From Candidatus Eiseniibacteriota bacterium (GTDB taxonomy: Bacteria; Eisenbacteria; RBG-16-71-46; SZUA-252), in contig JAEHDN010000033.1 of the NCBI GenBank assembly GCA_016880395.1, positions 1 to 35,014 of the forward strand: DNA of 35,014 nt, given 5' to 3'. The number at the start of each line of letters is the position of its first letter. Position 1 is the stretch's first letter. Below the pieces are notes generated by a model, which saw only the letters and a program-made list of their open reading frames with translations, was not told where the DNA came from and did no database searches. Positions 226 through 28,948 of the stretch are shown in pieces. The position numbers were made by a program, and so were the translations under genes.

Positions 226-1485
226 CTAGCCCCGCTCCAGCACGTCCCCGCTCGCGAGTCCCTCCCGCGGAAAATCCTCCTCCGCCAGATCGGGAGCGAT
301 CCGCACGTTCCGCCCCACCGTGATGCCCTCGGGCACACGCGTCTCCTTGCCGACGAGCGTCAGGCCCGAGCTCAGGTGCTCCGGGCAGGAGCGATTCGGG
401 ATCGATGGGCCCGTGCCGATAACAGCCGCGCGCCCCACGTGCACGCGCTTGTCCAGGATGACGCGGTCGAGTACGGCGTCGGGTCCGATCCAGCACTCAC
501 CCATGACGATCGAGTCGCGCACGACCGCCCCCTCCTCCACCACGGCCCCGGGAAAGAGAACCGACCGCTCCACGGTGCCGTGCACGATGGTGCCGTGGGT
601 GACGATCGATGAGCGCACGTGCGCACCCGCCCCGATCCGCGCCGGCGGGTACTCCGTGCTCGGCGTGAAGATCGGCCAGCGCGGATCCTCGAGCGGAAAC
701 GGCGGGTCCTCGCTCACGAGGTCGAGGTTTGCCCGGTAGAAGGAATCGAGCGTCCCGATGTCCTGCCAATAGCCCGGGACGACGAACGCCGCCACCCGCC
801 CGCGCTCGACCAGAGCGGGCAGGATCTGCCGGCCGAAGTCGTGCGCCGAGTTCCGCTCGTCGTCGCGAACCAGCTCCTCGAGGAGAGCCGCGGTGCGGAA
901 GACATACACCCCCATCGAGATCCGCCCCGAGGGAGGATTCGCGGGCTTTTCGAGGAAGCCGGTGATCCAGCCCGACGCGTCGGTGCGGACGACGCCGAAC
1001 TGCGACGCCTGCTCGATCGGGACCTCGGTGACCGCGACCGTGGCGTCGGCGCCCCGCTCCAGGTGGGCCTCGATCATCGGTCGATAATCCATGCGATAGA
1101 CGTGATCGCCGGAGAGGACGAGGATGTGCTCCGCTTGGCGGTCCTGGACGCGGTGCCAGTTCTGCCAGACGGCGTCCGCCGTGCCTCGGTACCAGTCGTT
1201 CTCCGCCCAGCCCTGGAACGGCTGCAGGAGCTCGACGCCCCCACGCTTGCGATCGAGGTCCCACGCGCGGCCGATACCGATGTGGTCGCGCAGCGAGAGC
1301 GGCCGGTACTGGGTCAGGATCCCGACGTCGAAGATCCCGGAGTTCACGCAGTTCGAGAGCGTGAAGTCGATGATCCGGTACTTGCCGCCGAACGGAACGG
1401 CCGGCTTCGCGCGCTTCTCGGAGAGGAGGCAGAGCCGGCTCCCGACGCCTCCCGCGAGGATCATGGCGTAGCCGACGAAGCTCAT
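226..1485 (-). CDS. glgC: glucose-1-phosphate adenylyltransferase (ADP-glucose pyrophosphorylase), catalytic-type
   Basis: 419-aa ORF with GlgC motifs: [11 protein letters not shown]-loop, [30 protein letters not shown] and FLEKP, plus a C-terminal left-handed beta-helix region. Confidence 0.9.
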
Positions 1486-2729
1486 CGCGCAGCTCCGACC
1501 GGCCGCGGCCGCACGGTGGAGCCCGAAGGCACCTCGCCCCGCCCGTAGTCGCGCTCTCGCACGCCGATCTCGACGAGCGTGTTGCGGCCCACCTTGGCGC
1601 CGGCCGGGACCTCGGCTCCCTTGCCGATCACGCAGAGGCCCGCGCCCAGGTCGTGGGGATGCTCGCGATGCCGCACCGGCTCGCCCACCCCGACCTCGGC
1701 CCCCTCGCCGATCCGCACTTCCTTGTCGATGATCGCGCGGTGGAGCTTCGCGCCCCGGAGGACGCGCGTGTCGTGCATCACGATCGAATCCTCGACGACC
1801 GCTCCGGGGCCGACGTGGACGCCCGGGAAGAGGATCGACCGGCGGACCGTCCCCTCGACCCGCGTTCCGTGCGCGATCATGCTCGAAGCGACCTCCGCGC
1901 CCGCGCCGAGGAGCGACGGGGCGCGGTCCTCGCTTGGCGTGTAGATGAGCCAGTCGGGATCATTGAGGTGGATGGGCGGGAGCGGCCGAAGGAGAGCCAT
2001 GCTCGCTTCGTAATAGGAGTCGATCGTCGTGACGTCGCGCCAGTAGCCGTCGAAGGGCTCCGCGTGCACGGGCAGCCCCTCGTCGATCATCGGTCGGATC
2101 ACGTCGGCCACGAGGTCTGGCCCGAGCGATGGGTCCGCCAGGCGGGCGAGGAGGTCGCGACCGCGGAAGAGGTAGATCGACGCCGAGACGACAGTCCCCG
2201 CGTCGCCCGTGCGGCGCGCCTCCACCGAGCGGATCCGTCCGGCGTCGTCGGTCTCGAGAATGCCGTAGCGCTCGGCCTCCTCGTCGGGACTCGCGGTCGT
2301 GACGACCGTCAGGGCCGACCCGCGCGCCTCGTGCCGCGCGATCAGGCGGCCGTAGTCCATCTTGTAGATCAGATCGCCCGAGACCACGAGGATGTGCCGC
2401 GCCTGCGCGTCCGCGATCACGTTCCGATTCTGGACCAGCGCGTCGGCGGTGCCGCGGTACCAGTTGGTCGCCCGCTGCCGCACGTACGGAGGCAGGAGGC
2501 GGATCCCGCCGTCGCGGCGATCCAGATCCCACGCCCGGCCGATGCCGATGTGCCCCTGGAGCGAGAGCGGCGCGTACTGCGTCAGGACGCCGATCCGCAT
2601 GAGGCCCGAGTGGACGCAGTTGGAGAGGGTGAAGTCGATGACGCGGTACTTGCCGCCGAACGGGAGGGCTGAGGCCGTGCGCATGCGGCCAAGGGCGTGG
2701 AGCCGCTCGCTCTTCCCCCCCGCGAGCAC
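1482..2729 (-). CDS. second ADP-glucose pyrophosphorylase paralog, GlgD-like (probably regulatory or non-catalytic)
   Basis: 415-aa ORF with a 4-nt overlap onto glgC. It shares [19 protein letters not shown] and VSGDLIYKMDY. The G-loop is degenerate (LAGGKSERL) and the EKP sugar-phosphate motif is replaced (SVEARR). The start is GTG 2727-2729 in the track; a CTG at 2757-2759 with an upstream GGAGG may be the real start. Confidence 0.8.
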   Translation of the reverse strand: MLAGGKSERLHALGRMRTASALPFGGKYRVIDFTLSNCVHSGLMRIGVLTQYAPLSLQGHIGIGRAWDLDRRDGGIRLLPPYVRQRATNWYRGTADALVQNRNVIADAQARHILVVSGDLIYKMDYGRLIARHEARGSALTVVTTASPDEEAERYGILETDDAGRIRSVEARRTGDAGTVVSASIYLFRGRDLLARLADPSLGPDLVADVIRPMIDEGLPVHAEPFDGYWRDVTTIDSYYEASMALLRPLPPIHLNDPDWLIYTPSEDRAPSLLGAGAEVASSMIAHGTRVEGTVRRSILFPGVHVGPGAVVEDSIVMHDTRVLRGAKLHRAIIDKEVRIGEGAEVGVGEPVRHREHPHDLGAGLCVIGKGAEVPAGAKVGRNTLVEIGVRERDYGRGEVPSGSTVRPRPVGAAR

Positions 2730-2783
2730 GAGGACGAGGATCGGCGGTACGACGGTCAGGCGCGGACCTCCGGCGCGGAGCGC

Positions 2784-3818
2784 CTAGAACGCGAACGAAG
2801 CGGAAATGCGGTGGCTCGAATCCAGATCCTGATGGTCCAGGTACGCGTAGTCGAGCCCGAATTTCTTGAAGCGGAATCCGGTTCCCGCCGCGAAGTTCTG
2901 CCCCTCGAAGCCGGCGCGGAGCGCGAGCTTCCGCTCGAGCCAGTACTCGAGCCCCGGATGGAAGAGGAAGGTCACCGAGCCTAGGTGCGCCTGGCTGGAG
3001 AGCTGCTCGTCGGAGAAGCCCATGTCGACGTCGAACGCGGCGGTCAGGACGTGTTTGCGGTTCGAGAAGGCCTTCGTCTTGGCCACGCCCAGCCGCAGGG
3101 ACGGTGCAATGTACTCATCGGTGCCCGTGTTCCATAAGATTCGCGTGGTGGTGGCGTCGCTCAGCTTGGCGCCGGCCGACCAGCCGTGCGACCCCACGTA
3201 GAGCGCGCCCAAGTCCAGTCCGAAGCCGTTCGAGCGGAGGCTGTCCCCCAGCCACTGCCGGATCAGCTTCACGTTCCCCCCGAGCGAGAAGCCGCGGCTC
3301 ACCTCGCGGGCGTAGCTGAAGAGGAGCGCGACGTCGTTGTCGCTGTCGAACACAAAGCGGCTCTCGTCCACGACCAGGCGGTCCTCGGGATAGTCGAACC
3401 GACCGTTTCCGTTCACGTCGATGATCTCGAGGCCGCGCGTGTCGGGGATCTCGTCGACGCCGAGCCGGATGAGCGAGACGGCGAGCCCCTGCTTGGCCTT
3501 GCCGGGGGCACCGATCGGTGTCGCGTAGGAGAGGAAGTCGTACTGCACGATCGAGCCGAACTGCTCGGCGTGCATGGCCGAGACCTCATGGGTGCCGAGG
3601 GTCGCGAGCCCGGCGGGATTCCAGTAGGCGGCGCTCCCGTCGTCGGCCAGCCCGGCGAAGGCACTGCCCATCCCGAGCGCGCGTGCGCCAACGCCGATGC
3701 GGAGGAATTCCCCGGCGTAGCGGGTCGCGTGGGCCGGCCGCGCGAACAGGAGGAGCCCGAGGGTCGGAAAGGCCAGGAGCAGGGCCAGATGGCGCATGCG
3801 CGGGAACGATGAGGTCAT
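2784..3818 (-). CDS. outer-membrane beta-barrel protein, PorV/PorQ (FadL-like) family
   Basis: The signal peptide is MRHLALLLAFPTLGLLLFARPAHA. It is followed by GARALGMGSAFAGLADDGSAAYWNPAGLA, the hallmark N-terminal motif of PorV/UPF0164-type barrels, and the protein ends in an aromatic residue (..SASFAF). The track ORF extends to 3956, but that Arg/Gly-rich extension overlaps the PilZ gene. ATG 3816-3818 or ATG 3795-3797 is more plausible. Confidence 0.6.
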   Translation of the reverse strand: MTSSFPRMRHLALLLAFPTLGLLLFARPAHATRYAGEFLRIGVGARALGMGSAFAGLADDGSAAYWNPAGLATLGTHEVSAMHAEQFGSIVQYDFLSYATPIGAPGKAKQGLAVSLIRLGVDEIPDTRGLEIIDVNGNGRFDYPEDRLVVDESRFVFDSDNDVALLFSYAREVSRGFSLGGNVKLIRQWLGDSLRSNGFGLDLGALYVGSHGWSAGAKLSDATTTRILWNTGTDEYIAPSLRLGVAKTKAFSNRKHVLTAAFDVDMGFSDEQLSSQAHLGSVTFLFHPGLEYWLERKLALRAGFEGQNFAAGTGFRFKKFGLDYAYLDHQDLDSSHRISASFAF

Positions 3819-3909
3819 GGGCGGGTGACGGGATCCTCGCGTGGACGACGCGGCCGTTCCGTAGCAACTACCCGCGGGCCGAGCCGCCGGTTCCCCCCGG
3901 CGGCGTCCG

Positions 3910-4344
3910 TCACGGCGCGGCGCTCCGCCGCGGCCGGGCCGCTTCCGGCTCCCCATTCGACGTCGGGATCCGGCGGATCGTGCGCCAGAGGACGTACTGC
4001 TCGATCAGCTCCCGGTCCCCTTCGGCGAGGTCGGTGAAGTAACAGGCCATCTCGTAGCGGGTCGTCTGGCGGGGGCCCGTCCGCTCCTCGCAACGCACGA
4101 TCACGCCCTGGCACTGGAGCATCCGCTCCCGGCGGAGGCGGCGCCCGAACGGAGGCAGGAGCAGCGTCAGCGCCACCTTGGTCAGCGGGGAGAGGAACAG
4201 CCGGCTCCCGAACTGGATGCCGCTTGCGGAGAGGTTGATGCTCTCGGTGGTGACGACGGACGCGTCGTCCTGTCCCGAGACCTGCATCGCGAGCTTGGCG
4301 GAGATGCGGGGCGCTTGGCGTCGCTCGCGGGTCGGCTTGGTCAT
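3910..4344 (-). CDS. stand-alone PilZ domain protein (c-di-GMP receptor)
   Basis: Both PilZ signatures are present: RxxxR (RRQAPR) and D/NxSxxG (NLSASG). ATG 4342-4344 is preceded by AAGGAGAGG, so it is preferred over the track start at 4374. Confidence 0.75.
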   Translation of the reverse strand: MTKPTRERRQAPRISAKLAMQVSGQDDASVVTTESINLSASGIQFGSRLFLSPLTKVALTLLLPPFGRRLRRERMLQCQGVIVRCEERTGPRQTTRYEMACYFTDLAEGDRELIEQYVLWRTIRRIPTSNGEPEAARPRRSAAP

Positions 4345-4379
4345 GGACCTCTCCTTGTGGGGGCGTCGTTCCATGGGGC

Positions 4380-7906: not shown

Positions 7907-7931
7907 GGCGCCGCAGTCTCGCCGCGGCGCC
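7907..7931 (-). terminator. GC-rich hairpin with pyrimidine/U-rich tail (terminator or attenuator candidate)
   Basis: The minus strand reads GGCGCCGC-ggcgagact-GCGGCGCC, a perfect 8-bp stem, followed by TTCCTCCTTTC. It lies about 80 nt upstream of the proposed sppA TTG start. Confidence 0.35.
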
Positions 7932-8197
7932 TTCGGAGGCCCGGGGGAAGTCGGGCCCTTGTAGTACATGTTCCCCACGTGTGCCGTGCATCCGGTGCCG
8001 TTGGAACTGCGTCGTCTCGTCGAGGGGATCAGCTCAGGACCGGACGATTCTCGCGAGCACCGCAGGGAACAAGATCAGTTTTTTTGTTGCGTCCTACGCC
8101 CAGTAGATACAGCAACCCCCGTTCCCCGCGGCGACCAGGCGTGGGAAATCGCAAAGAAACCTGGTCGAGCCTTGGCTCGAACGGGCCACATCTAAGT

Positions 8198-8226
8198 TAT
8201 GTAATACGAATGCGATACGATCACAA
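8198..8226 (-). promoter_or_regulatory. candidate sigma70-type promoter inside the GC-poor spacer
   Basis: The minus strand reads TTGTGA (8221-8226), a 17-nt spacer, then TACATA (8198-8203). It sits in the most AT-rich stretch of the window. Confidence 0.25.
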
Positions 8227-8311
8227 TCTTGAGCTTAAGTTGAGGACGGCCGGCGGAGTGTCCCGATGCGGGGACCAGCGACCGTGCAGCGATCGTGCGA
8301 GTGGCTGGATC

Positions 8312-8348
8312 CGGGGTTTTGCGCCCCATTGGCAGGGGCGAAACCCGC
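8312..8348 (-). terminator. imperfect GC-rich hairpin just downstream of the gpmI stop
   Basis: The minus strand reads GCGGGTTTCGCCCC-TGCCAAT-GGGGCGCAAAACCCCG and begins 7 nt after the gpmI stop codon. There is no clear U-tract. Confidence 0.35.
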
Positions 8349-8354
8349 AGCCGA

Positions 8355-9878
8355 TTACGGCAGGATGAGCGAGGCTCCGGTCATCTCCGGCGATGGAGCG
8401 AGGCCTAGGAGCTGAAGGAGGGTGGGCGCGACGTCGGCCAGGATGCCGGACCGCAGGGGGAGTGGAGGGCCGCCGCCGGCGACGATGGGAACGGGATTCA
8501 GCGTGTGGGCCGTGTGGGGACCTCCGGTCGCCTCGTCGATCATCTGCTCGGCGTTCCCGTGGTCGGCCGTGACCAGCGCCACGCCGCCTCTCGCCTCCAC
8601 GGCCTCGAGAACGCGCCCGAGGCACGCGTCCACGGTCTCGACCGCGCGGATGGCCGCGGCCAGGACGCCGGTGTGCCCCACCATGTCGGCGTTCGCGTAG
8701 TTGAGGACGAAAAACCCGTACGGCTCCGAGAGCCGGCGCACCACCTCGTCCGTGACCTCCCGAGCGCTCATCTCGGGCTTCAGGTCGTAGGTCGCCACCT
8801 TCGGCGAGGGGATCAGCGCCCGGTCCTCCCCGGCGAAGGGCGTCTCCTCGCTTCCGTTGAAGAAGTAGGTGACGTGAGCGTACTTCTCCGTCTCCGCGAT
8901 GCGGAGCTGGCGAATCCCCGCCCGGCTCACGACCTCGCCGATCGTGCCTCGGAGCGGCTCGTCCGTGAAGATGACCGGGAAGCGGAAGGTCTCGTCGTAC
9001 TCCGTCATGCAGACGTAGTGGGTCGCGGGCGGCGCGCCGGGCCGAGGAAATCCGTCGAACGCGGGATCCGCCAGGGCGCGGGAGATCTGCCGCATGCGGT
9101 CCGGACGGAAGTTGAACGCGACGACCGTGTCCCCGTCCCGGATCCTTCCATCGTCGCCGCGCACCACGGTGGGCTCGACGAATTCGTCGGACTCGCCGCG
9201 GGCGTAGGCCAGAGCCAGCGCGGCCTCCGGGGAATCGGCTTCGTGGCCCGTGCCCAGGGCGAGCGCGCGGTAGGCCTTCTCGGTCCGCTCCCATCGCTTG
9301 TCGCGGTCCATCGCGTGGTAGCGTCCCGAGATCGTAGCGATCCGGCCGTCCGGCACCTCGGCGAGCACCGATTCCGTCGCACGGATGGAATCGCCCGCGG
9401 AGCGTGGAGGCGTGTCGCGGCCGTCGAGAAACGCCTGCACCCGGATGCGGCGCACGCCCCGTGCCGCCGCCTGGCGGATCATCGCGGCCAGATGCCGCTC
9501 GTGGCTGTGCACGCCGCCCGGCGAGACGAGCCCGACCAGATGGAGCGTGCCCGAAGCGCGCGCTCGCTCGAGCGAGGCCACCCAGACGGGGTTCCACTCC
9601 AGCGATCCGTCGCGAAGCGCCTGATCGATGCGGGTGAGGTCCTGATAGACGATCCTTCCCGCCCCCAGGTTGAGATGTCCCACCTCCGAATTCCCCATCT
9701 GACCCGCCGGCAGCCCGACCGCTTCCCCGCAGGTCGTGAGCGTCGCGCTCGGGCGGCCCGCGAGCAGCGCGTCCATGACGGGCGTGCGCGCGAGCGCCAC
9801 TGCGTTGCCCTCGCGCTCCGGACGGATCCCCCAGCCGTCGAGCACGATGAGGCCGACGAGCCCCTGGCGTCGATTCAT
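8355..9878 (-). CDS. gpmI: 2,3-bisphosphoglycerate-independent phosphoglycerate mutase
   Basis: The protein starts MNRRQGLVGLIVLDGWG and contains MGNSEVGHLNLGAGR, GLVSPGGVHSH and ADHGNAEQM, all iPGM hallmarks. ATG 9876-9878 is used. The track extension to 10064 overlaps the upstream gene. Confidence 0.92.
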   Translation of the reverse strand: MNRRQGLVGLIVLDGWGIRPEREGNAVALARTPVMDALLAGRPSATLTTCGEAVGLPAGQMGNSEVGHLNLGAGRIVYQDLTRIDQALRDGSLEWNPVWVASLERARASGTLHLVGLVSPGGVHSHERHLAAMIRQAAARGVRRIRVQAFLDGRDTPPRSAGDSIRATESVLAEVPDGRIATISGRYHAMDRDKRWERTEKAYRALALGTGHEADSPEAALALAYARGESDEFVEPTVVRGDDGRIRDGDTVVAFNFRPDRMRQISRALADPAFDGFPRPGAPPATHYVCMTEYDETFRFPVIFTDEPLRGTIGEVVSRAGIRQLRIAETEKYAHVTYFFNGSEETPFAGEDRALIPSPKVATYDLKPEMSAREVTDEVVRRLSEPYGFFVLNYANADMVGHTGVLAAAIRAVETVDACLGRVLEAVEARGGVALVTADHGNAEQMIDEATGGPHTAHTLNPVPIVAGGGPPLPLRSGILADVAPTLLQLLGLAPSPEMTGASLILP

Positions 9879-11188: not shown

Positions 11189-11839
11189 TCAGAAGCGGAG
11201 GGCGCCCAACCAGTCGTCGAGCAGGAACATCACGCGGCCGATCAGGAGCGAGACGCGCGCCATGACGGTGTATCCGTACGACGCTCCGAAGCTGACCATG
11301 AGGAAGTAGATCCCGAGCCGAGCCGTTCCGCCCATCGCGCCTTTGTGCTCCTTCGAGAAGAAGAAGAAGATCAGCGTGCAGAGGAGCCCGACCACGAGCA
11401 GCAGGTTGCCGATCGTGGTGCCGAGATGCCCCGGGACCCAGAGCGGGAGGATCGTGCCGTGGATCTGCTCCACGAAGTCCCCCTGGCCGAATCCCGTGAT
11501 GCGGAGCGCCGGATAGACGCCGAGGACGAACGCGATCGGCCATCGGGAGAGCCAGTCCCCGCGCGGGAAGAATCGCGAGAAGAGCATGATGCCGAGCACG
11601 AGCGGAATGATCAGGAGGTAGTGCCGATCGCTCGCGAAGGACGTGAAGAGCGGGTGGATGAGGTTCGGGTAGACCGAGGACATCATCGTCAGCACGACGT
11701 AGTAACCGGCCGACACCCCCACGAACAGGTGCTCGCAGAACTTGTAAACCGGATTGTCCTTGTAGAGGAAGCTGAAGATGCCGAGCGTGAGGAGCGCGGC
11801 GATCCACACGCCGATGTCGTGGCTCGGATGGAAGCTCAC
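11189..11839 (-). CDS. polytopic membrane protein, unknown family (membrane module subunit D)
   Basis: GTG 11837-11839 overlaps the stop of the upstream gene (GTGA). The 216-aa product, VSFHPSHDIGVWIAALLTLGIFSF...FLLDDWLGALRF, has about 6 hydrophobic helices. The rest of the 500-aa track ORF is an alternative-frame artefact. Confidence 0.65.
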   Translation of the reverse strand: MSFHPSHDIGVWIAALLTLGIFSFLYKDNPVYKFCEHLFVGVSAGYYVVLTMMSSVYPNLIHPLFTSFASDRHYLLIIPLVLGIMLFSRFFPRGDWLSRWPIAFVLGVYPALRITGFGQGDFVEQIHGTILPLWVPGHLGTTIGNLLLVVGLLCTLIFFFFSKEHKGAMGGTARLGIYFLMVSFGASYGYTVMARVSLLIGRVMFLLDDWLGALRF

Positions 11840-12672
11840 GACGTCCCCTTTCCCTTGCCCTTGCCCTTCGGCAGGAAGGCCAGGTTGCCGAGCACGATCA
11901 TGAAGGCGATGAACGCGTGCGCCAGCGACTGCGCGTCCATGCCCCGGGTGGCGAGGGCGGGTGCGCCCACGAGCACTTCGTACTCGGCCGCGCCCGCCAT
12001 GCCGCCGAGCAGCCCGTGGAGCTGGCCCGCCTGGAGATACGGGTAGTACTCGGGTGCGCTCACGGCCGTCACACCGGCGACCATGGGAAGGTGGAACCGC
12101 GACACCACCTGCTGCACCCACTCCTTCGTCCCCGGATATCCGGCGCTGATGTTCACGAGGAGCCGGATCTGCTGGAAATTCTGGATGCCCTTCATGATCG
12201 GAATCTGCCCGACCGGGACCCCGCGGTTGTCCACGGGGAAGGTCTTCGGAATGCTCTGCCCCATTTGCGACATCACGAGCTCGTTCCCGACCTTGTAGCC
12301 CAGGTTCACGTAATCCACGCTCTCGCGCTTGTGGTACTCGCGCGCCGCGATGCGGAGGACCTGGTCGGTGAGCGGCGGGCCCGCGGGATAGAGCGCCATG
12401 GCGATGATCTTCATGTTCCGTCGCATGAGCTGCCGCGCCGCCGCGAGGTGCATCGGATAGTTCTCCGCCGCCGTGCCGGGATCGTAGTCCCCCGCCAGGA
12501 GGACGACCGATCCCTCGGGGATCTTCTCGATGGCGTCGTAGAAGCCGCGCGCCCGGTTGCTCGGCTGGACCGGCGCGATGTGGAAGTTGAACAGGAGCGG
12601 CAGGATCACGAGGAGCGCCACCGCGAGGAAGATCCAGCGCCGGTCGAGCCGGCGGAGCGAATCCGGGCTCAT
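11836..12672 (-). CDS. bitopic protein with N- and C-terminal TM helices flanking a ~210-aa soluble domain, unknown family (subunit C)
   Basis: ATG 12670-12672 overlaps the stop of the upstream gene (ATGA). The product starts MSPDSLRRLDRRWIFLAVALLVILPLLF, has a C-terminal TM (LAHAFIAFMIVLGNLAFL) and ends in a KGKGKGKG tail. Confidence 0.65.
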   Translation of the reverse strand: MSPDSLRRLDRRWIFLAVALLVILPLLFNFHIAPVQPSNRARGFYDAIEKIPEGSVVLLAGDYDPGTAAENYPMHLAAARQLMRRNMKIIAMALYPAGPPLTDQVLRIAAREYHKRESVDYVNLGYKVGNELVMSQMGQSIPKTFPVDNRGVPVGQIPIMKGIQNFQQIRLLVNISAGYPGTKEWVQQVVSRFHLPMVAGVTAVSAPEYYPYLQAGQLHGLLGGMAGAAEYEVLVGAPALATRGMDAQSLAHAFIAFMIVLGNLAFLPKGKGKGKGTS

Positions 12673-13304
12673 GCCCCGTCCCCTCCGCCATAGGTCTTCT
12701 CGAGTCCCAGGATCACGCGGATGCCCGTGGCCATGACGCCGAGTGCGGCCCCGATCAGGATCCCGCGCTTGGCCGCGTTCTGCGGGATCTCCATCAGCCA
12801 GTCCGCGGCCGCTGGAATCGCCGGGTGGATCGCGGCCCCGAGCGGCACCCGTCCCAGCATCAGGATGAATGCGGCGATGGCGAGGAGCATCGCTTCGACG
12901 GATCGGATCCGGAACGCCCGGAAGGCAGCGGACGCGATGAAGAAGGCGAGGAGCGAGAACATGGTTGCGGTCATGGGCGAGTAGAAGGTGCCGTAGATCC
13001 ACTGGAAGCGCGAGTCCACGTCCGTGTAGTGCGTCCATTCCGAGAAGCCGACGGCCATCGTGACGAGGAGTCCCGCGATCAAAACGAGCTTGAAGGGCCA
13101 GTCGCGCTCGCGCCGCGAGACCTGGCGCAAGTTGATGCGCAGCAGGTTGGCCACCCCCAGCACGTACGTGCACCCGACCACGACGATCGCCCAGTTCTGC
13201 ATGTCCTCGTAGAGGTTCCGCACCTGGGGATGGGGCACGAAGAAGGCGATCAGCATGAAGAGGCCCGCCACCAGCGTGATGACGATCGGGATCTCGCGCT
13301 TCAC
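12669..13304 (-). CDS. polytopic membrane protein, unknown family (subunit B)
   Basis: 211-aa ORF starting MKREIPIVITLVAGLFMLIAFFV, with about 6 hydrophobic helices. It lies 10 nt downstream of subunit A. Confidence 0.65.
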   Translation of the reverse strand: MKREIPIVITLVAGLFMLIAFFVPHPQVRNLYEDMQNWAIVVVGCTYVLGVANLLRINLRQVSRRERDWPFKLVLIAGLLVTMAVGFSEWTHYTDVDSRFQWIYGTFYSPMTATMFSLLAFFIASAAFRAFRIRSVEAMLLAIAAFILMLGRVPLGAAIHPAIPAAADWLMEIPQNAAKRGILIGAALGVMATGIRVILGLEKTYGGGDGA

Positions 13305-13314
13305 GCGTGCGTCC

Positions 13315-14172
13315 TCACTGGGTGGCGAAGAAGTCGCCGAGCCACGTGTGGCCGAAGGTGGCCAGCAGACAGCCCAGCACGATGACGATGATCATGAGGA
13401 CCTTGACCATGTCGGAGGCCTTGAGGCTACCGAGGAGGCGCGGGTCATTGGAGAGGAGCGCGCTCGCCGCGAAGTACTCCTCGCCGATCAGCGTGTAGTC
13501 GCAGGCCACCACGAAGAAGGGCATCTGGTGGACGTTCGCGGTGCCTGCGATCTGGATCGCCCCGACCGCGTGCCCCGTCTCCGCGAGGAGGAGCGACTCG
13601 GCAAAGAAGGCGCCCAGGAGCAGGTTCGCCGCGGGCCTCTCGCGCAGCATCATCCCGTTCACCGCCGCCACGTACGCGAACTGCTCCGAGGTGACGTAGC
13701 GGACCTGGTCGCTCCGGTACGCGTCCCGGCGCCCGACGTCCGAGTAGGCGGACTTCACCACCTCCTCGGCCACGGTGTACACGCCGGGCGAGTTCGTGGG
13801 GACGTTGAGCGCGGTCTCGTACTTGGCGGCGACCCGCGCCACCCGGCCGAGCAGGATCATGCTCGCGATGGTCTGGATGTCGTCGATGTCCTGGACCCCG
13901 GGCACGTAGAGGACGCCCTTCCCCATCTCCGTCGCGCGTCCCACCGCCTCCTCGATCGCGTCGAGGCCGGGGATCTTCCGGAAGACCCACCGGGCGCCCC
14001 GCTCCGCGAGGCGGATGTAGCCGAAGAGCAGCGCGAAGAAGATCCCCGTCACGATGAGGACGTTGAGCTTGCTCCAGTCGAAGAAGTTCGCGGCCGCGCG
14101 CGCCGGACGCGATACGTCGGAGTCGAGCGCGGCATCGGCCGGGGATGCGACGAGCTGGTACTCGTAGGTCAC
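13315..14172 (-). CDS. membrane-anchored protein, unknown family (subunit A); probably extends upstream to about 14484 with a signal peptide and Fn3-like domain
   Basis: The track ORF starts at GTG 14170-14172. It has a TM (LNVLIVTGIFFALLFGYIRLA), a ~215-aa soluble region and a C-terminal TM (VLMIIVIVLGCLLATF). The same frame stays open to 14610 and encodes a signal-peptide-like segment and an Fn3-like domain without any ATG/GTG/TTG (see findings). Confidence 0.65.
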   Translation of the reverse strand: MTYEYQLVASPADAALDSDVSRPARAAANFFDWSKLNVLIVTGIFFALLFGYIRLAERGARWVFRKIPGLDAIEEAVGRATEMGKGVLYVPGVQDIDDIQTIASMILLGRVARVAAKYETALNVPTNSPGVYTVAEEVVKSAYSDVGRRDAYRSDQVRYVTSEQFAYVAAVNGMMLRERPAANLLLGAFFAESLLLAETGHAVGAIQIAGTANVHQMPFFVVACDYTLIGEEYFAASALLSNDPRLLGSLKASDMVKVLMIIVIVLGCLLATFGHTWLGDFFATQ

Positions 14173-14584
14173 CCCCGCCTGCGCGTTGTCGTCCTCGAAG
14201 CGCGCGGCGGTCCCCTCGACGGTCGCGATCGGAGCGAAGGTTCCGCCCTGCTCCCGCCGGACGACGAGCCAGGCGTGCGGTGGGACGGCGGGCGGATTCC
14301 AGGCCAGGGTGACGCTGCCGCCCGCGTCGTTGGGCGTGTCCTGGGCGCCGAGCGGAAACGTCTGCGCGTCGCGCGGCAGCGCGAGGGCCGGAACCGCGGC
14401 GACGAGGAACAGGAGCGCCGCGAGCCGCCAGGAGGGCGCGCGTGAGGATGGGAGCGTGGTCCGCGGGTCGCGGAGATTCGTCAGGAGGAGGCTCCCTGGC
14501 TGGGACGGGACGCTCCAACTCTGCCGCGATCGGATCTCAGCACGTGGTGCGCTTCCTCCCAGGTATCGGCCGGAAAACCGCTCA

Positions 14585-14614
14585 ACGGTAGGCTCTTCCC
14601 GCCGGCGGTGTCAA
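14585..14614 (-). promoter_or_regulatory. candidate sigma70-type promoter for the membrane module
   Basis: The minus strand reads TTGACA (14609-14614), an 18-nt spacer, then TACCGT (14585-14590). It lies in the ~140-nt spacer after the stop of the 375-aa gene. Confidence 0.3.
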
Positions 14615-14628
14615 GCATCGTGCAGTCG

Positions 14629-15756
14629 TCAGGACTCGATCATCTCCACGTTGGCCCGGGGAAGGATGCTCTTCGACCCATTGCCGAAGTCCACCTCGAG
14701 CACGCGAACCTTGGCCTCCGTCTCGAGCGCCATGAGCTCCGGCGGAAGGGCGACCACCTTGCCCAGGCGACCGAAGAAGGGCTCCCGGATGACCCGGATG
14801 ACGCTCCCGAGCTCGAGGCCGGCGTGACCCCCGCCGTCCCCGTCCGCGCCCGCGCCGGGGGCCACCGCCTGAGGCACGACGATCTCGGGCCGGAGGACGC
14901 CGGCGCGGATCTGGGTCGCCCCGCTGACCGAGGCCTTCTTCCCCTCACACTGCTTCAGGAGCTCGAACGTCCGGCCGGCCATCGGGATCTCCCCGAAGCC
15001 CTCGGTCACGACGAGCGTGATCCCCTTCTCCTCGGATCCCGTGATCGCGACGCCGAGGTCGTAGCCCAGGAACTCCCGGAGGTCGTGATCGTCGAACCCT
15101 CCGACGACGACCGCCCGCGCCCCGCGCTGGATGGCGTAGCGCAGGACCTTCGTGCTGACGTGCGAGCCGCCCACGAGGATCTTGCCGCGCACCTCCTCGC
15201 CGATTCTCGCCTCGGTGAGGACGTCGCCGGGTCCGTCCACGCAGATGTGGAGGCTACCGACCGTCTCACCGCCGATGCCAAAGATCCCCTGGATGAAGCT
15301 GCCGCGCGTCTCGACCGTCACGCCCTGCCCTTCGTGGACCTCGACGACGGTGCCGTCCACGTAGGCGTCCACCTCGACCGGGATGGGAGGCTCGCGGAGG
15401 ATGGCCTGCCCCGTCACGGTGGAGATGATCTCGAGCGTGCTGTCGACCGGCGCCGTGCACCGGGACTTGAAGAGACCGAAGAAGGAGCGGCTCTCGGCGA
15501 ACGCCTCCCCCTTCTTCAGGTGTGATCCAATTGGCTTGATGAGGCAATCCGGAACGTCCTCGGGAAGCACCCCAAGGATGTTCGCCGCGTTCACCGTCTG
15601 CACGTTGCCCGGCAGCTCGGTGCGGGCCACCACGGTCTCGGCTTCGACCGTCTGGCCGACCGTCACGAGCACGGTTCCGGCGAGGGGGAGCTTCCGCTCC
15701 CGGCGGACCACGGTGAAGCGGGCGACCTTGAGTCCGGGCGTGTACGAGTGGGCCAT
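14629..15756 (-). CDS. hypothetical cytoplasmic protein with N-terminal barrel-sandwich (lipoyl-like hybrid) motifs and a KOW-like C-terminus
   Basis: 375 aa, with GAGGAG upstream of the ATG. The sequence contains GTVLVTVGQTVEAETVVART and a KOW-like C-terminal GSVIRVIREPFFGRLGKVVAL. No signal peptide or TM was seen, and the family was not recognised with confidence. Confidence 0.65.
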   Translation of the reverse strand: MAHSYTPGLKVARFTVVRRERKLPLAGTVLVTVGQTVEAETVVARTELPGNVQTVNAANILGVLPEDVPDCLIKPIGSHLKKGEAFAESRSFFGLFKSRCTAPVDSTLEIISTVTGQAILREPPIPVEVDAYVDGTVVEVHEGQGVTVETRGSFIQGIFGIGGETVGSLHICVDGPGDVLTEARIGEEVRGKILVGGSHVSTKVLRYAIQRGARAVVVGGFDDHDLREFLGYDLGVAITGSEEKGITLVVTEGFGEIPMAGRTFELLKQCEGKKASVSGATQIRAGVLRPEIVVPQAVAPGAGADGDGGGHAGLELGSVIRVIREPFFGRLGKVVALPPELMALETEAKVRVLEVDFGNGSKSILPRANVEMIES

Positions 15757-15759
15757 GGC

Positions 15760-17580
15760 TCAGCTCCTCACCGCGACCGGGTAGATGTCGAGCGCCTCGT
15801 TCCACTCGGCCAGCTTGGCGATCCGCTGGGTTCGATCCGCGGGGAGCACGAAGGGTTGGCGGCCACGGGCGTCGAGGATCACCCCGACGATCCCACCGCG
15901 GAGGGTCACCGAGCGCTCCTTCCCCTTGCCGGCCCCGACGTCGAGGCCACGGTCGGGGCGGAGCACGGCGTTCACCGTCTGCCCGTCGGGAACGGGGATC
16001 AGCTTCAGCTGGCCGAAGGGAACCGACACCTCCTCCTTCCGACCGTCCGCGTACTCGAGCGCTGCCCGGAGCGCCACCGTCCCCTCCTTGCACGGCCCCA
16101 CCGGTGCGACGCTCGACCCGAGCCGGATCAGGCAATCCTTCTCGAAGACGTGTTTCGCGGCCTCCGGGTGTACGGTCGAGAGGACGCCGAGCTGGGGCAT
16201 CATGAAGATGGAGTCGACCGCCAGCTCCGTCACGTGCTCGGGCAGGAACGCGTCGAGCATCATGAGGGCGGACTGGGCGCGGCGCGGCGCATGCGACAGC
16301 ACGCCGCCGCTCCCCACGAGCAGGTCGAGATGGTCGAGCCGCACGAGCGAGGCGCCACTCCCGGTCTGCTCGAACGTGTCGGAAATCGTCCGCTCCTGCT
16401 GCACGCCCTTCAGCCCCACGGCGAGCATCTTGTGCTGGTCGAACGCGAGCCGGAGCGCTTCCCGCGCGATCGCCTGCTCGATCACCAGCTCGTCCAGGGT
16501 CTGCGGGATCGTCGTCGGGCGGATCATCTTGTTCTTGATCCGGTTCCTGAGATCCGGCTCGCTGATCTCGAAGGGGACCCACCGGAGGATGTTCGGCAGC
16601 CCAGCCTCGGCGAGAACGTTCGAGACGCTGTAGGACATCCCGAGGTTCGCGCTCACGGTGCGGTTGAAGACGCCCTGGAAGACGGAGAAGACGTCCGTGG
16701 TCGCGCCGCCGATGTCCACGCCGAGGACGTTGATCTTCTCGTCCCTGGCGATCGTCTCCATGATGAGGCCGACCGCGCCGGGCGTCGGCATGATGGGGAC
16801 CGGCGACCAGGTCATGAGCTTCTTGTACCCGGGCGCGTGCGCCATGACGTGCTCCATGAAGAGGTCGTGGATCTTGTCGCGCGCCGGCGTGAGGTTCTCG
16901 CGCTCGAGCACGGGCCGGAGGTTGTCCGTCACCACGAGCGCCGTCTTCGAGGCCAGCCGCTCCTCGACGATCGACCGGGCGTCCTTGTTCCCCGCGTAGA
17001 TCACGGGCAGCTCGTAGCCGGCGCCGAGGCGCGCCTTCGGATCCGCCGCCGCCAGCAGCTCCGCCATCTCGGCGACGTGCGAGGTCGTGCCGCCGTCGAT
17101 CCCTCCCGAGAGGAGGATCATGTCGGGCCGGAGCTGGCGGATCCGCTTGATCTTCTCGTGCGGGAGCCGTCCGTCGTTGCTCGCGATGACGTCCATCACG
17201 ATCGCCCCCGCGCCGAGCGCCGCGCGCTGCGCGCTCTCGCCCGTCATGCTCTTCACGACGCCGGAGACCATCATCTGGAGCCCGCCCCCCGCGCTCGATG
17301 TCGAGATGTAGAGATCGACCCCCTCGTTCCCCTTCTGGGGCGTGAGTATCCGCTCACCATCGAGCAGCTTCCGACCCGCCAGCTCCTCGACCTCCATGAT
17401 GGCGTTGAGCACCCCGCGGGTGACGTCCTCGAAGGGAGCCTCGACCGTGGTGGGCGCCTCGCCGCGCACGATGAGGCGATACTCGCCGCCTCGGCGCTCG
17501 ATCAGGATCGCCTTGGTGGTCGTGCTGCCGCAGTCGGTCGCGAGAATCGAGTTCAGCTCGTCGGGCTTCGGAAGGGTCAC
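15760..17580 (-). CDS. GlmL/MutL-like ASKHA-fold ATPase (glutamate mutase L family-like)
   Basis: 606 aa. It has two actin/HSP70-type phosphate motifs, ILATDCGSTTTKAIL and VLGVDIGGATTDVFSV, plus LLSGGIDGG. The layout resembles GlmL/MutL-type accessory proteins. The start GTG overlaps the upstream stop (GTGA). Confidence 0.65.
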   Translation of the reverse strand: MTLPKPDELNSILATDCGSTTTKAILIERRGGEYRLIVRGEAPTTVEAPFEDVTRGVLNAIMEVEELAGRKLLDGERILTPQKGNEGVDLYISTSSAGGGLQMMVSGVVKSMTGESAQRAALGAGAIVMDVIASNDGRLPHEKIKRIRQLRPDMILLSGGIDGGTTSHVAEMAELLAAADPKARLGAGYELPVIYAGNKDARSIVEERLASKTALVVTDNLRPVLERENLTPARDKIHDLFMEHVMAHAPGYKKLMTWSPVPIMPTPGAVGLIMETIARDEKINVLGVDIGGATTDVFSVFQGVFNRTVSANLGMSYSVSNVLAEAGLPNILRWVPFEISEPDLRNRIKNKMIRPTTIPQTLDELVIEQAIAREALRLAFDQHKMLAVGLKGVQQERTISDTFEQTGSGASLVRLDHLDLLVGSGGVLSHAPRRAQSALMMLDAFLPEHVTELAVDSIFMMPQLGVLSTVHPEAAKHVFEKDCLIRLGSSVAPVGPCKEGTVALRAALEYADGRKEEVSVPFGQLKLIPVPDGQTVNAVLRPDRGLDVGAGKGKERSVTLRGGIVGVILDARGRQPFVLPADRTQRIAKLAEWNEALDIYPVAVRS

Positions 17581-17870
17581 GAGGATTCCTTTCGTCGGTT
17601 CCGCTCGGCGTCGCGCTCCGCGCGGCGTCGCGCCTTGTCTGCCCGCTCCTCGGCGCGCGTCGCCTCGTCCCGCGCCTCGATCTTCACGAGGAGCGTCTCG
17701 AGGGTGTCGCGCCGCTCCACGAGGGCGGCGAATCGTTCGTAGTCCGGAACCGAGACGAAGGCCCGGACCATCGGTTCGAAAAAGTAGAGCGCCTGGCTCC
17801 CCACGAACGAAAGGGGTTTGACGCTCTCGAGCGTCAGGATCGCGGGCACCGTCATGCGGAGCGCGACCAC
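17577..17870 (-). CDS. small hypothetical protein with a hydrophobic N-half and a highly charged helical tail
   Basis: 97 aa. The N-half reads ..PAILTLESVKPLSFVGSQALYFFEPMV.. and the tail reads EARDEATRAEERADKARRRAERDAERNRRKE. It is coupled to the ATPase gene by a GTGA overlap. The start is uncertain because the frame is open further upstream without a canonical start. Confidence 0.5.
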   Translation of the reverse strand: MVALRMTVPAILTLESVKPLSFVGSQALYFFEPMVRAFVSVPDYERFAALVERRDTLETLLVKIEARDEATRAEERADKARRRAERDAERNRRKESS

Positions 17871-17976
17871 CCGCTCCGCGATCCGCTGGAGGAGCGCGTC
17901 GTCCTCGGGCGAGAGGCCATGCTGCCCGCTTCCCCCCGGGGGCCCGAACGCCCCGGAGCCCGGCGCGACCGGCCCC

Positions 17977-18432
17977 TCAGGACGCGGCGGCGCCGGACTT
18001 GAGGCGCGCTTCCACGAACGCCACCACTTGATCGCGATTTCCTCCGAACAGGAGCCGGACGCCGCGGTAGGCCTCCAGCCAGCTCCGCCGCTCGAACGGG
18101 CTCAGGAATACGCCCGTCCGGTCCACCGTCATACGCCGCATCTCCGTCCAGGGACGGACGCGGGCCACGCCCAGCGACCGCACCTCGACCGCGTCCTCGG
18201 TCAGCCGGTAGGCGGTGGGAAAGAGAAAGGACGAGAGTGAAGCCAACACGAACAGCGGCGTCGCCACTCCGAGGACGGCATCCTGGGTCCCTCGCGCCAC
18301 GAGCACGCCCAGGACCACGGCCGAGCCGACCAGCACCGCCGCCGCGAGCGGACGCTCGCGGGCCGGCCACGCGGTCCAGCTGAGCGCGCCCCCCGGTGGC
18401 GCCGGGCGGCGCCCGCGATCAGCCTCCGGCAC
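17977..18432 (-). CDS. 2-TM membrane protein with a possible bacterial PH-like (bPH) C-terminal domain
   Basis: 151 aa, with a GTG start overlapping the last codons of gcvPB. It has two hydrophobic helices, then YRLTEDAVEVRSLGVARVRPWTEMRRMTVDRTGVFLSPF, which resembles YdbS/YdbT-type bPH domains. The domain call is tentative. Confidence 0.5.
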   Translation of the reverse strand: MPEADRGRRPAPPGGALSWTAWPARERPLAAAVLVGSAVVLGVLVARGTQDAVLGVATPLFVLASLSSFLFPTAYRLTEDAVEVRSLGVARVRPWTEMRRMTVDRTGVFLSPFERRSWLEAYRGVRLLFGGNRDQVVAFVEARLKSGAAAS

Positions 18433-25739: not shown

Positions 25740-26966
25740 TCATTCGTACCGGAGGGAGTCCACCGGGTCGAGGCGCGCCGCTTTCACGGCGGGGTACATC
25801 CCGAAGAAGAGCCCGATCGACGTGGCGGACCCGAACGCGAGCAGGATGCCCCAGATCGGCACCGCGAACGTCAGCGGCGTCACGAGGTCGATCACCTTGC
25901 CCGCTCCGAGGCCCGCGAGGACGCCGATGATCCCGCCCACACCGGTGAGGGTCATGGCCTCCACGAGGAACTGCCAGAGGATGTCCCGCTCCCGGGCGCC
26001 GAGCGCCTTGCGGACGCCGATCTCGCGCGTCCGCTCGGTCACCGAGACCAGCATGATGTTCATCACGCCGATCCCGCCGACCATGAGGCCGATGGACGAG
26101 ATGACCACCATCACCAGGTAGAAGGCACCGGTGATCTGCCCGTAGAGATCGACCAGGGACTTGTCGGTGAAGACGGCGAAGTTGTCCCCCTGGTCGTACC
26201 GGACCCGGCGCTGGCGGCGGAGCACATCCGCGATCTGCTCGCGCGCCACGTCGATCAGCTCCGGCGACGCGGGCTTCGCGTTCAGTACCATGGGCAGATT
26301 CGGCCCGAAGAGCTTCTCCAGGGTGGTGTAGGGGACGAGCACGATCTCGTCCATGCTCATCCCGAGGAAATGGCCGCGGGGCTCCGCCTGGCCGATCACG
26401 GTGAAGGGCTGACCGCCGATCGTGATCGTCTTCCCCACGGGGTTGACGTGCGGGAAGAGCGTCTCCACGTGGTCCATGCCGAGCACGCACACCGCCGAGC
26501 GGTGCTCCACCTCCGCCTCCGTGAACCCGCGTCCGTTGTCCACGGCGTAGTTGTTCGTCACCATGTAGTCGGGCGAGGTGCCGATGACGAAGTTCGGGCG
26601 GGTCTGGATCTCCCCGTACCGGAGCCGGAGCTCCGCGAAGTTGAGCGGGGCGACCGCGAGCACCGCCGGGGCCGCGCGGCGGATCGCCTCCGCGTCCTCC
26701 GGCTCGAACCCCTTCCGCCGGCGGAGGCTGTCGGGCATCTCGCCCACCCAGGCCCCGGGGGCGAACGGGCGGATGTAGAGGACGTCGGTCCCGAGGGACG
26801 CGAGCTGCGCCTTCATGCTCTGGTTCAGCCCCTCGATGATCGAGATCATGGCCATGATGGCCGTGATCCCGATGATCACGCCGAGCACGGTCAGGAAGGA
26901 GCGGAGCTTGTTCTCCCGGAGCGCCTGGAACGCGATGGTGACGCCTTCGCGGACGGGGATGGCCAT
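25740..26966 (-). CDS. ABC transporter permease, MacB/FtsX type (permease 2)
   Basis: 408 aa. It has an N-terminal TM, a large periplasmic domain and a C-terminal FtsX 3-TM bundle with [15 protein letters not shown]. It is paralogous to the adjacent permease. Confidence 0.85.
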
Positions 26967-26969
26967 CGG

Positions 26970-28223
26970 CTACTCGTGCCGCAGCGCGACGATCGGATCG
27001 AGCCGCGCCGCGCGCGTGGCGGGATAGACGCCGAAGAAGAGTCCAACCGCCGAGGCCACGCCCAGGCTGATGGCGACCGACCAGGGCTGGATGGTCGCCG
27101 GCAGCGGGGTGATCGTGCGGATCAGGAGCGCGATCGCGACGCCCGCCACGACCCCGAGCGCGCCGCCGAAGAGAGCCAGCACGACCGCCTCGCTCAGGAA
27201 CTGCGACACGAGGTCCGACCGGCGCGCCCCCACCGCCTTGCGGATGCCGATCTCACGGGTCCGCTCGGTGACCGCCACCAGCATGATGTTCATGATCACG
27301 ATGCCCCCGACCACGAGCGAGATCGCGACGAGGCCGATCGTTCCCGCGAAGATCCCTCCGGTCAGGGTCTGGTACAGGGCGAGGTAGGTTTCGGCGGTGG
27401 AGATCGCGAAGTCGTCCGGAGCGCCGAGCGGAACGTGGCGCGCCGATCGAAGCACCACCCTGGCCTCGTCCTCGAGCCGGTCCAGCGTCACGCCGGAGGC
27501 CGCGCTCACGATCAGGGTGAGCGATCGATGGCCGCCGTACATCTTCTGGAACTGTCCGAGCGGCACGACCACGAGGTTGTCCTGGCTCTGGCCGAGCACG
27601 TTCCCGCGGGCCGCGAGCGTGCCAACCACGAGCAGCTCGTAGCCCGACACCTTGATCGACTGGCCGATGGGGTCGAGCCGCGGGAAGAGCGCCTCCGCCA
27701 CCTCGGATCCGATCACGCAGACCGGCCGCCGGCGGTCGAAGTCCATCTCCTCGAGCTCGCGCCCCTGATCGGTCTCGTACTTCCCGACCGATGGGTAACC
27801 CTCGGTGGTCCCCAGGATGCGAACGTTCTTGAGCTCCGTGCCCCGGTGGCGGACCGATTTGTTGGCCTCCGCCTGCGCCACCACCCGGTCCGCGAGGCGC
27901 ATGCGGGACGCCAGGGCATCCGCCTCGAAGGCCGTCAGGTCCCGGCGACGGGATGCTTCCCGGAACGCATCGTCGTCGGTGATGAGGCCGAACTTGTCGA
28001 TGTAGATGACGCCCAGACCCTGGTCCAGGATCCGCTCGGAGACGTACTTGTTGACCCCGTCGATGATCGAGACGACGGCGATCACCGACATGACCGCGAC
28101 GACGTTGCCGATCACGGTCAGCACGGTGCGGAGCTTGTGGGCGCGGAGCGCCCCGACCGCGATGGAGAGGTTTTCCGCCAGCGCGACCAGGGCGTCGCGT
28201 CGGGGCCGGCGGACCGCGGTCAC
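26970..28223 (-). CDS. ABC transporter permease, MacB/FtsX type (permease 1)
   Basis: 417 aa with the same architecture as permease 2, including [15 protein letters not shown]. Its start overlaps the ATPase gene stop by 4 nt. Confidence 0.85.
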
Positions 28224-28948
28224 GGGTTCGGCGGCGCGGCGGGCTGGACGGAGCGGTCGCTCTCGATCTTGCCGTCCCGGAGCCGGATGATCCGGCGGGC
28301 CCGCGCGGCCACGTCCTCCTCGTGGGTGACCAGGATGACCGTGTTCCCCTTCGCGTGGATCTCATCCATGAGGGTGAGGATCTCGATCCCGGTGCGCGAG
28401 TCGAGGTTCCCGGTGGGCTCGTCCGCGAGGACGAGCGAGGGGTTGTTGACGAGCGCCCGCGCGATCGCGACGCGCTGGCGCTGGCCGCCGGAGAGCTCGT
28501 TGGGGCGATGGTGCGTGCGATCGCCGAGGCCCACCATCGCCAGCATCTCCTTGGCGCGCTCGCGGCGCTCCGCGGATGGCTTGCCCGAGTAGATGAGGGG
28601 CAGCTCGACGTTGTGAAGGGCGTCGGCGCGGGGGAGCAGATTGAAGGTCTGGAAGACGAACCCGATCTCCTGGTTCCGGATCCGCGCCAGCTCGTCGTCG
28701 TCCCGCTCCCGGATCTCCGTTCCCCGGAGCTTGTACGATCCGCTCGTCGGCGTGTCGAGACAGCCGACGATGTTCATCAGCGTCGACTTGCCCGACCCGG
28801 ACGGCCCCATGACGGCGACGTACTCCCCGACGTGGATCCGGAGCGTGACCCCGTCCAGGGCGTTCACCTCGGTCGTGCCCATCTCGTAGATCTTGCGCAC
28901 ATCGGTGATATCGATGAGAACGCCGTGCTCGGCGCCATTCGCGCTCAC
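28220..28948 (-). CDS. ABC transporter ATP-binding protein (MacB/LolD-type)
   Basis: 242 aa with Walker [10 protein letters not shown], signature [15 protein letters not shown] and Walker [13 protein letters not shown]. Confidence 0.92.

Follow-up and report, generated by a model that had tools for sequence, protein, structure and literature searches.

We analysed a 35,014-nt window of the Candidatus Eiseniibacteriota contig JAEHDN010000033.1, in which a block of eight co-oriented genes, at 11189–18432 on the minus strand, sits between gcvPB and a gene for an LplA-like lipoate ligase. All coordinates are those of the whole window, which has a G+C (GC) content of ~70%, and the genes of the region all lie on the minus strand. 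An initial annotation had placed eight open reading frames here that it could assign to no known pathway; their coordinates, strand, overlaps and gaps were reproduced. The genes are referred to below, in order of transcription, as g1–g4 and A–D:

17977–18432, minus strand: g1, 151 aa, GTG start
17577–17870, minus strand: g2, 97 aa
15760–17580, minus strand: g3, 606 aa
14629–15756, minus strand: g4, 375 aa
14485–14628, minus strand: spacer between g4 and A, 144 nt, with a TTGACA-N18-TACCGT motif and an AGGGAG Shine-Dalgarno-like site
13315–14484, minus strand: A, 389 aa, putative CTG start
12669–13304, minus strand: B, 211 aa
11836–12672, minus strand: C, 278 aa
11189–11839, minus strand: D, 216 aa

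The start of g1 overlaps the gcvPB stop (18419) by 14 nt. Further along, g2 and g3 overlap in a GTGA and g3 and g4 are 3 nt apart; beyond the 144-nt spacer, A and B are separated by 10 nt, B and C overlap in an ATGA and C and D in a GTGA. The TTGACA-N18-TACCGT motif that had been reported for the spacer is present, but no promoter was called there (0 promoter-like sites in a consensus scan), and scanning for consensus promoters and terminators did not delimit the operon boundaries. Third-position GC was 0.85–0.92 in the screened-in open frames (those holding g2, g3, g4, A and B), which is typical of genuine genes in a 70% GC genome, and conserved homologues exist for all eight genes. Candidatus Eisenbacteria metagenome-assembled genomes (MAGs) are the closest relatives.

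The g3 protein is an ASKHA ATPase of the MutL/GlmL family. It matched the Pfam family MutL (PF13941) over the entire profile (E = 9.5e-128; 427 bits against a gathering threshold of 27; profile positions 1–450 of 450, aa 12–483), and the two phosphate loops that the initial annotation had pointed out are both present (DCGSTTTK and DIGGATTD). Beyond this match, g3 carries a C-terminal extension of ~120 aa. Its scores did not reach the NCBIfam cut-offs for GlmL (NF040745; 228.5 bits, cut-off 475), TIGR01319 (158.7 bits, cut-off 204.05) or Or-4. A Pfam scan of the window genes revealed no B12 mutase subunit (glmS/glmE or oraS/oraE) near g3, the only B12-binding match in the window being a sub-threshold one inside g3 itself (E = 0.09), nor was a B12 mutase found in the related loci covered by a scan or an annotation of their genes; the constant neighbour of g3 is g4, not a mutase. 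A role of g3 as a GlmL reactivase for a B12 mutase was ruled out by these sub-cut-off scores and by gene context. Because g3 falls below every GlmL-type cut-off of NCBIfam and has no B12 mutase neighbour, its profile matches place it in a distinct subfamily that is here no mutase accessory protein. This subfamily is well conserved, with 49–88% identity to the window protein among 12 aligned sequences from loci of ~38–70% GC and with many invariant columns. Sequence-profile search of the PDB identified no relative of g3; in Pfam, g3 weakly matched MreB-like_C below threshold (E = 0.015), and PilM and FtsA were unmatched.

The g4 protein is the cytoplasmic partner of g3. Its AlphaFold2 model (mean predicted local distance difference test (pLDDT) score of 92.6; alignment of 89 sequences) comprises two N-terminal barrel-sandwich-type β domains, a PA-like α/β domain and a small C-terminal KOW barrel, and the model, Foldseek and profile matches agree on the barrel-plus-KOW build that had been read from the sequence. 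Foldseek matches to PDB structures were at the domain level only, namely to Thermotoga maritima NusG (domain 2 also separately, 2xha), to the KOW domains of Spt5 and L24 and, for the α/β domain, to the PA domains of ZNRF3 and aminopeptidases. Template-modelling scores (TM-scores) of the whole chain against PDB entries were ≤0.2, and no solved structure covers the full chain. Sequence-profile search of the PDB likewise yielded weak NusG/KOW-type matches only (best E = 0.0024), and g4 itself matched no Pfam family. Although some JGI records label g4 homologues as NusG, we rejected an identity with NusG or Spt5: the NusG N-terminal (NGN) domain is unmatched in Pfam, and the likeness is confined to single domains. 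Longer relatives of g4 match the Pfam families RnfC_N (weakly), NQRA_N, Biotin_lipoyl and KOW; NqrA and RnfC were not among the best 50 structures listed by Foldseek for g4. The g4 family is large, comprising 2331 clusters at 50% identity (E ≤ 1e-3).

Protein A is built, in order, of a signal peptide, an exported Fn3 domain, a transmembrane helix, a DUF6754 α/β domain and a C-terminal transmembrane helix. The DUF6754 match (PF20539) is nearly full-length (E = 1e-111; 372.6 bits, gathering threshold 27; profile positions 2–256 of 257), and the exported Fn3-like domain noticed in the initial annotation was borne out by a match to titin Fn3 among PDB sequence profiles (E = 1e-14). In the AlphaFold2 model (pLDDT 79), Fn3 spans aa 45–113, the transmembrane helices aa 137–161 and 348–376, and a β-α-β core aa 172–290. 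This core is followed by a low-confidence yet near-invariant segment (AESLxLAExG...IQxAGT...FFxxxCDYxLIGEE) with an acidic motif; the alignment of A has 52 invariant columns. By the positive-inside rule, the DUF6754 domain is predicted to lie in the cytoplasm. On its own it gave no PDB sequence-profile match; DUF6754 has no described function, and no paper on it was found in the full-text literature. The first canonical start is a GTG at 14172, and the stretch coding for the signal peptide and Fn3 lies upstream of it, in a frame that is open back to 14610 and contains no ATG, GTG or TTG upstream of 14172. At 14484, 8 nt beyond the AGGGAG, is a CTG that fits the spacer given in the initial annotation; two relatives (L001 and L002, A ~78% identical) show the same geometry of CTG and GGGGAG. 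This CTG is probably the non-canonical start of A.

The other three membrane subunits, B, C and D, matched no Pfam, NCBIfam or PADLOC model. Hydropathy analysis predicts ~6 transmembrane helices in the polytopic B and ~4–6 in the polytopic D, in which E36, R89, R99, H165, R195 and R202 are invariant; in C, N- and C-terminal transmembrane helices flank a ~215-aa domain, which is predicted to face the periplasm from the abundance of Lys and Arg at both termini. Over A–D this gives about 14–16 helices, in line with the ~16 counted before. Against PDB sequence profiles, B gave four weak matches (best E = 0.018) and C and D none, and weak Pfam matches over 44 C and 41 D homologues revealed nothing consistent. 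A second homologue search, with the D profile, returned only Eisenbacteria proteins of 74–98% identity. By profile comparison, B, C, D and DUF6754 are unrelated to one another: C was rejected as a relative of DUF6754 (hhalign probability 1.7%), B as a homologue of D (0.8%), and a duplication among the other pairs of subunits (B/C, D/C, DUF6754/B and DUF6754/D) likewise. B was never seen apart from A, C and D, and in a Zixibacteria paralogue it is fused to FG-GAP repeats of the β-propeller type.

The two small proteins accompany g3 and g4. In g1, hydropathy predicts two transmembrane helices (~aa 28–46 and 53–71), followed by a soluble C-terminal part of ~80 aa. No Pfam or NCBIfam family was matched. 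Of the bPH_2/YdbS-like build, the two helices are predicted, and the PH-like domain suggested earlier has no Pfam match. The only PADLOC match among the eight proteins also concerned g1 (E = 0.0087, 13.6 bits). A hidden Markov model built from orthologues placed g1 beside g2-g3-g4 in many loci, including lineages of GC 0.42–0.48 that lack gcvPB. In g2, a charged helix comes after the hydrophobic motif VPAILxLESxKPLxFxGSQ, whose conservation extends to L050, L051, L064 and L110. Among 16 well-flanked loci with g3, 12 also have g2. As a correction to the earlier description of g2 as membrane-associated, no segment of it exceeds the hydropathy threshold for a transmembrane helix.

These genes co-occur in many lineages outside this genome, in shuffled orders and as fusions, which answers the doubt whether the block is peculiar to one genome. 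With A as the anchor, we surveyed 48 genome loci. The order gcvPB-g1-g2-g3-g4-A-B-C-D-lplA is preserved in all Eisenbacteria-type contigs, and also in a clade that is only ~50% identical (L136, 1735–14261; L049 is also listed with this arrangement). Elsewhere the order varies. In L051 (38% GC), a g2-like gene is followed by A-B-C-D and then by g3-g4; in L050, g2 precedes a 995-aa fusion of g3 and g4, directly downstream of which come the DUF6754 protein A and then B and C; in L074, A–D flank g2-g3-g4 on both sides; in L115, g2 is placed after g4; and in L065, A–D lie ~5 kb downstream. Fusions of g3 and g4 occur as single chains of 995–1003 aa (P0150, P0227), and the fusion family seen in L050 is not the only one: a second occurs in Candidatus Ozemobacteraceae. 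Two or three full A-B-C-D sets follow one g3-g4 pair in Zixibacteria (L046, 2642–15534; L048) and in L071, L074, L075 and L128; the Zixibacteria loci have g3-g4 and then three sets, whose A paralogues differ in their exported N-terminal regions. In L079, two A–D sets follow g4, with no g3 within 7.3 kb upstream. The chief reason to think that these genes work together is that their linkage outlasts reordering and fusion across such a range of lineages. Six contigs with Eisenbacteria-type synteny and A of 47–71% identity carry other labels, namely Hyphomicrobiales, Limnocylindrales, Binatia, Dormiibacterota, Bacteroidota and Saccharimonadaceae (L005, L012, L015, L024, L025 and L036); these are probably mis-binned MAG contigs.

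The block is nevertheless modular. A census anchored on g4 covered 25 metagenomic loci with at least 3 kb upstream and at least 5.5 kb downstream of it: g3 and A–D were both present in 10 of the 25, g3 only in 6, A–D only in 1 and neither in 8. A–D are thus present at 10 of 16 loci with g3 and at 1 of 9 without it. We conclude that g3-g4 (with g1 and g2) and A–D are two modules, often but not obligatorily encoded together.

Each module was also found next to other genes. Stand-alone g4 genes, 52–57% identical and with no g3 within 10 kb (L078, 9998–13878; L084, L087, L091, L101, L122, L125 and L130), occur in the order LpxB-like gene, g4, a 280–314-aa outer-membrane-barrel-like protein, accA and era; the LpxB-like gene upstream of g4 in L084, L101 and L125 is identified by its sequence only, and in L078 divergent dnaK and grpE lie upstream of g4. 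In L104 (740–9706) and L113 (2072–11035), g3, an exported 265–279-aa protein with a C-terminal transmembrane anchor and g4 are directly followed by a full tolQ-tolR-tolA-tolB-pal-cpoB operon. In L053 (1557–9319), after a 1331-aa fusion of Peptidase_M1 and MutL/GlmL come a 457-aa g4 homologue and two Band_7 (stomatin/HflK-like) proteins. In Planctomycetales (L042–L045, L047 and L135), A-B-C-D comes after TIG/PKD surface proteins of 1200 aa and a signal-anchored protein of ~190 aa, which is conserved, and before truB; the ~190-aa protein was considered as a counterpart of g2 and rejected, as it is not g2-like. Finally, in L039 a Wza-like Poly_export/SLBB protein lies directly upstream of A–D (the flanks are listed at 7907–9751 and 15377–17695), and an FG-GAP protein with a type IX secretion system (T9SS) sorting tail lies downstream. 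That neighbours of this envelope type recur in lineages unrelated to one another favours a role in the envelope.

On this evidence, we propose that the block encodes an undescribed modular membrane or envelope system in which the g3/g4 ATPase pair serves A–D, a reading whose chances we rate as about even. The cytoplasmic module would consist of the GlmL-family ATPase g3 and its dedicated partner g4, usually with g1 and g2, and the membrane module of the four unrelated subunits A–D. Domains are expected on both sides of the membrane because Fn3 is exported, DUF6754 is predicted to be cytoplasmic and the termini of C are rich in Lys and Arg: DUF6754 would face the cytoplasm, and the periplasm would hold the α/β domain of C together with variable domains, which are Fn3 in this block and FG-GAP or longer inserts in other lineages. 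What we observed are the genes, their domains, their conservation and their linkage; that g3 and g4 dock onto the cytoplasmic face of A–D, most plausibly at DUF6754, is inferred. Through binding and hydrolysis of ATP, the pair could power or gate a change of conformation whose effect reaches across the inner membrane, and the outcome might be ATP-driven transport of a substrate, or the assembly or operation of an envelope structure. One ATPase pair would apparently serve several paralogous A–D modules.

Several observations weigh against this proposal. Contact between g3/g4 and A–D, ATPase activity and a substrate are all presumed. Foldseek on the full model of A returned Fn3 matches only, which swamped a comparison of the DUF6754 fold. 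At 6 of the 16 loci with g3, g3 and g4 are found without A–D within 7–10 kb downstream, g4 stands alone at 8 of the 25 census loci, and A–D occur without g3 or g4 within 10 kb in Planctomycetales and two uncultured lineages. Partners of quite another kind also adjoin g3 and g4, namely tol-pal or, for the Peptidase_M1 fusion, Band_7 proteins, and in some loci membrane genes are missing altogether; the gcv-lplA embedding in Eisenbacteria could mean a metabolic role instead. Because of the same separations, a single stoichiometric complex of all eight proteins can be regarded as a possibility only; the initial annotation had read stoichiometric co-expression from the tight junctions.

The separations also lend weight to a different account, in which g1–g4 and A–D are two independent neighbouring units that share an inherited synteny. 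Here g1–g4 would form a chaperone or enzyme module, either cytoplasmic or peripheral, that is linked with glycine cleavage or other housekeeping, for example a GlmL-type reactivating ATPase for an enzyme that does not use B12, and A–D a separate ion-driven transporter. We consider this account rather unlikely, though far from negligible. Consistent with it, the gcvPB-(g1)-g2-g3-g4 linkage recurs at loci of GC 0.40–0.65, once without A–D (L110), and in L113 a gene for a DAO-family flavin adenine dinucleotide (FAD) oxidase, judged from sequence alone, lies directly upstream of g3. The invariant E36 of D, just N-terminal of the predicted second transmembrane helix, would also fit, acidic residues near a transmembrane helix being frequent in ion-coupled proteins. 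However, simple inherited synteny is insufficient, because the linkage of g3-g4 with A–D is kept in varied gene orders and in lineages of 38–70% GC. Moreover, a g3-g4 fusion lies directly upstream of DUF6754, A–D are enriched beside g3 as counted above, and gcv genes are absent from most g3-g4 loci.

The neighbourhood in the window itself suggests a further possibility. Upstream of the block lie uvrA, gcvT, gcvH, gcvPA and gcvPB, and directly downstream the LplA-like lipoate-protein ligase gene, followed by iPGM, an S49 peptidase, HU and an RNB-domain ribonuclease (RNase II/R type). Between 10380 and 22774, the block interrupts what would otherwise be a coherent operon for glycine cleavage and lipoylation, gcvT-gcvH-gcvPA-gcvPB ... 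lplA. In such a setting A–D, with g1–g4 as accessory or regulatory proteins, could take up or export some small molecule tied to the flanking genes, such as glycine or a derivative, or lipoate or octanoate. The embedding, which is shared by Eisenbacteria and the ~50%-identical clade, and the translational coupling of g1 to gcvPB speak for it. In other genomes, however, A–D adjoin truB and TIG proteins, a Wza-like gene or tandem arrays, not gcv or lplA; large variable exported domains (Fn3, FG-GAP) and triplication of the module would be unusual for such a transporter; and A–D resemble no transporter family. We therefore regard this possibility as improbable. Farther off in the window (226–4374), after two tandem GlgC/GlmU-like nucleotidyltransferases (226–1485 and 1482–2729) come a UPF0164-like protein, putatively of the outer membrane (2784–3956), and a PilZ-domain protein (3910–4374).

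Comparison with known systems agreed with the initial annotation that the block cannot be assigned to a characterised one: searches of Pfam, NCBIfam, PADLOC and PDB sequence profiles, as well as Foldseek on two models, were negative, and full-text searches of the literature found nothing on this system. As had been noted, ATP-binding cassette (ABC) signatures are absent, none of the eight proteins matching ABC_tran or a permease family. An ABC or energy-coupling factor (ECF) transporter was rejected, as no P-loop ABC ATPase, EcfT, S-component or permease family was matched; the window's own ABC system (MacB-like, 25740–30234) is a cluster distinct from the block. Nqr/Rnf was rejected on negative Pfam results, the unrelatedness of B and D and the Foldseek list for g4 described above; a Tol/Exb/Mot motor, on the lack of a Pfam match and an hhalign probability of ≤0.4% for A–D against TolQ and TolR of L104 and L113; and a defence system, on PADLOC results that are negative apart from the g1 match. 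It is very improbable that the block is a highly divergent version of such a machine that sequence methods missed: the subunit sizes do loosely resemble those of Nqr/Rnf (two six-helix proteins of ~210 aa, one of ~280 aa with a periplasmic domain, and a peripheral barrel-sandwich N terminus), and some g4 relatives match RnfC_N and NQRA_N, but none of the subunits is matched by an Rnf/Nqr, ABC, MotA/ExbB or PADLOC model, B and D lack the homology that links NqrD with NqrE, and neither flavin or Fe-S motifs nor a P-loop ATPase occur in the block.

There are partial likenesses to characterised systems. GlmL/MutL, the accessory protein of B12 glutamate mutase (PF13941), and the related Or-4 of ornithine degradation share with g3 the full profile and both phosphate motifs; g3 differs in its sub-cut-off scores, in its additional C-terminal domain of ~120 aa and in having g4 instead of a mutase as its neighbour. 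The HSP70 import motors (mtHsp70-Tim44-TIM23 and BiP-Sec63-Sec61) are analogous in function, not homologous: they too place an ASKHA ATPase and a dedicated partner beside a multi-subunit membrane complex, which is how g3 and g4 are proposed to work, whereas the block has no J-domain, Tim44 or Sec homologues and g3 belongs to the hydantoinase/GlmL branch, not to HSP70. The actin-like ATPases of bacterial membrane platforms (PilM-PilN-PilO-PilP, MreB-MreC-MreD and FtsA) likewise combine a cytoplasmic ASKHA protein with bitopic or polytopic proteins that have periplasmic domains, in an envelope context, but the membrane subunits are unrelated (no Pfam matches to PilNOP or MreCD), and polymerisation of g3 is unsupported by evidence. 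In ECF transporters, one energising module serves several substrate-specific membrane components, much as one g3-g4 pair is followed in some loci by two or three paralogous A–D sets with differing exported domains; in these loci, however, the whole four-subunit module is duplicated, as opposed to the single S-component of ECF. The best domain-level likeness of g4 is to the KOW domains of NusG/Spt5, domain 2 of T. maritima NusG and the N-terminal barrel-sandwich of RnfC/NqrA, but its PA-like middle domain and its overall architecture have no solved counterpart. As far as the tools used can show, the combination is new as a system: its ASKHA, barrel-sandwich, KOW and Fn3 folds are ordinary, but no described system unites them, and for DUF6754, B, C and D the comparison was one of sequences. 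Three membrane families (B, C and D) are covered by no family model, DUF6754 has an entry only as a domain of unknown function, and full-text searches yielded no paper on any of the four.

To our knowledge, nearly all known primary active membrane machines run on P-loop or P-type ATPases. If the proposed pairing of an ASKHA ATPase with four unfamiliar membrane families is true, it would amount to a new kind of membrane machine, and a first function would be given to DUF6754, to the g4 family (~2300 clusters) and to three families without Pfam coverage. It is possible, if doubtful, that this would be the first membrane or envelope machine run by an ASKHA ATPase of the GlmL/hydantoinase branch, where others use an ion gradient or an ATPase of the P-loop or P-type kind. 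It would be built from four membrane families without known relatives, be widespread in uncultured FCB-/PVC-type bacteria and be able to serve several paralogous modules with differing surface-exposed domains. The families are abundant in soil and sediment phyla without a cultured model, for example Eisenbacteria and Zixibacteria. Leads that can be put to the test come from the recurrent envelope-type neighbours (Tol-Pal, Wza-like, LpxB-like and large surface proteins) and from the gcv-lplA embedding. Should the modules prove independent, each would still be a large conserved family that awaits a function.

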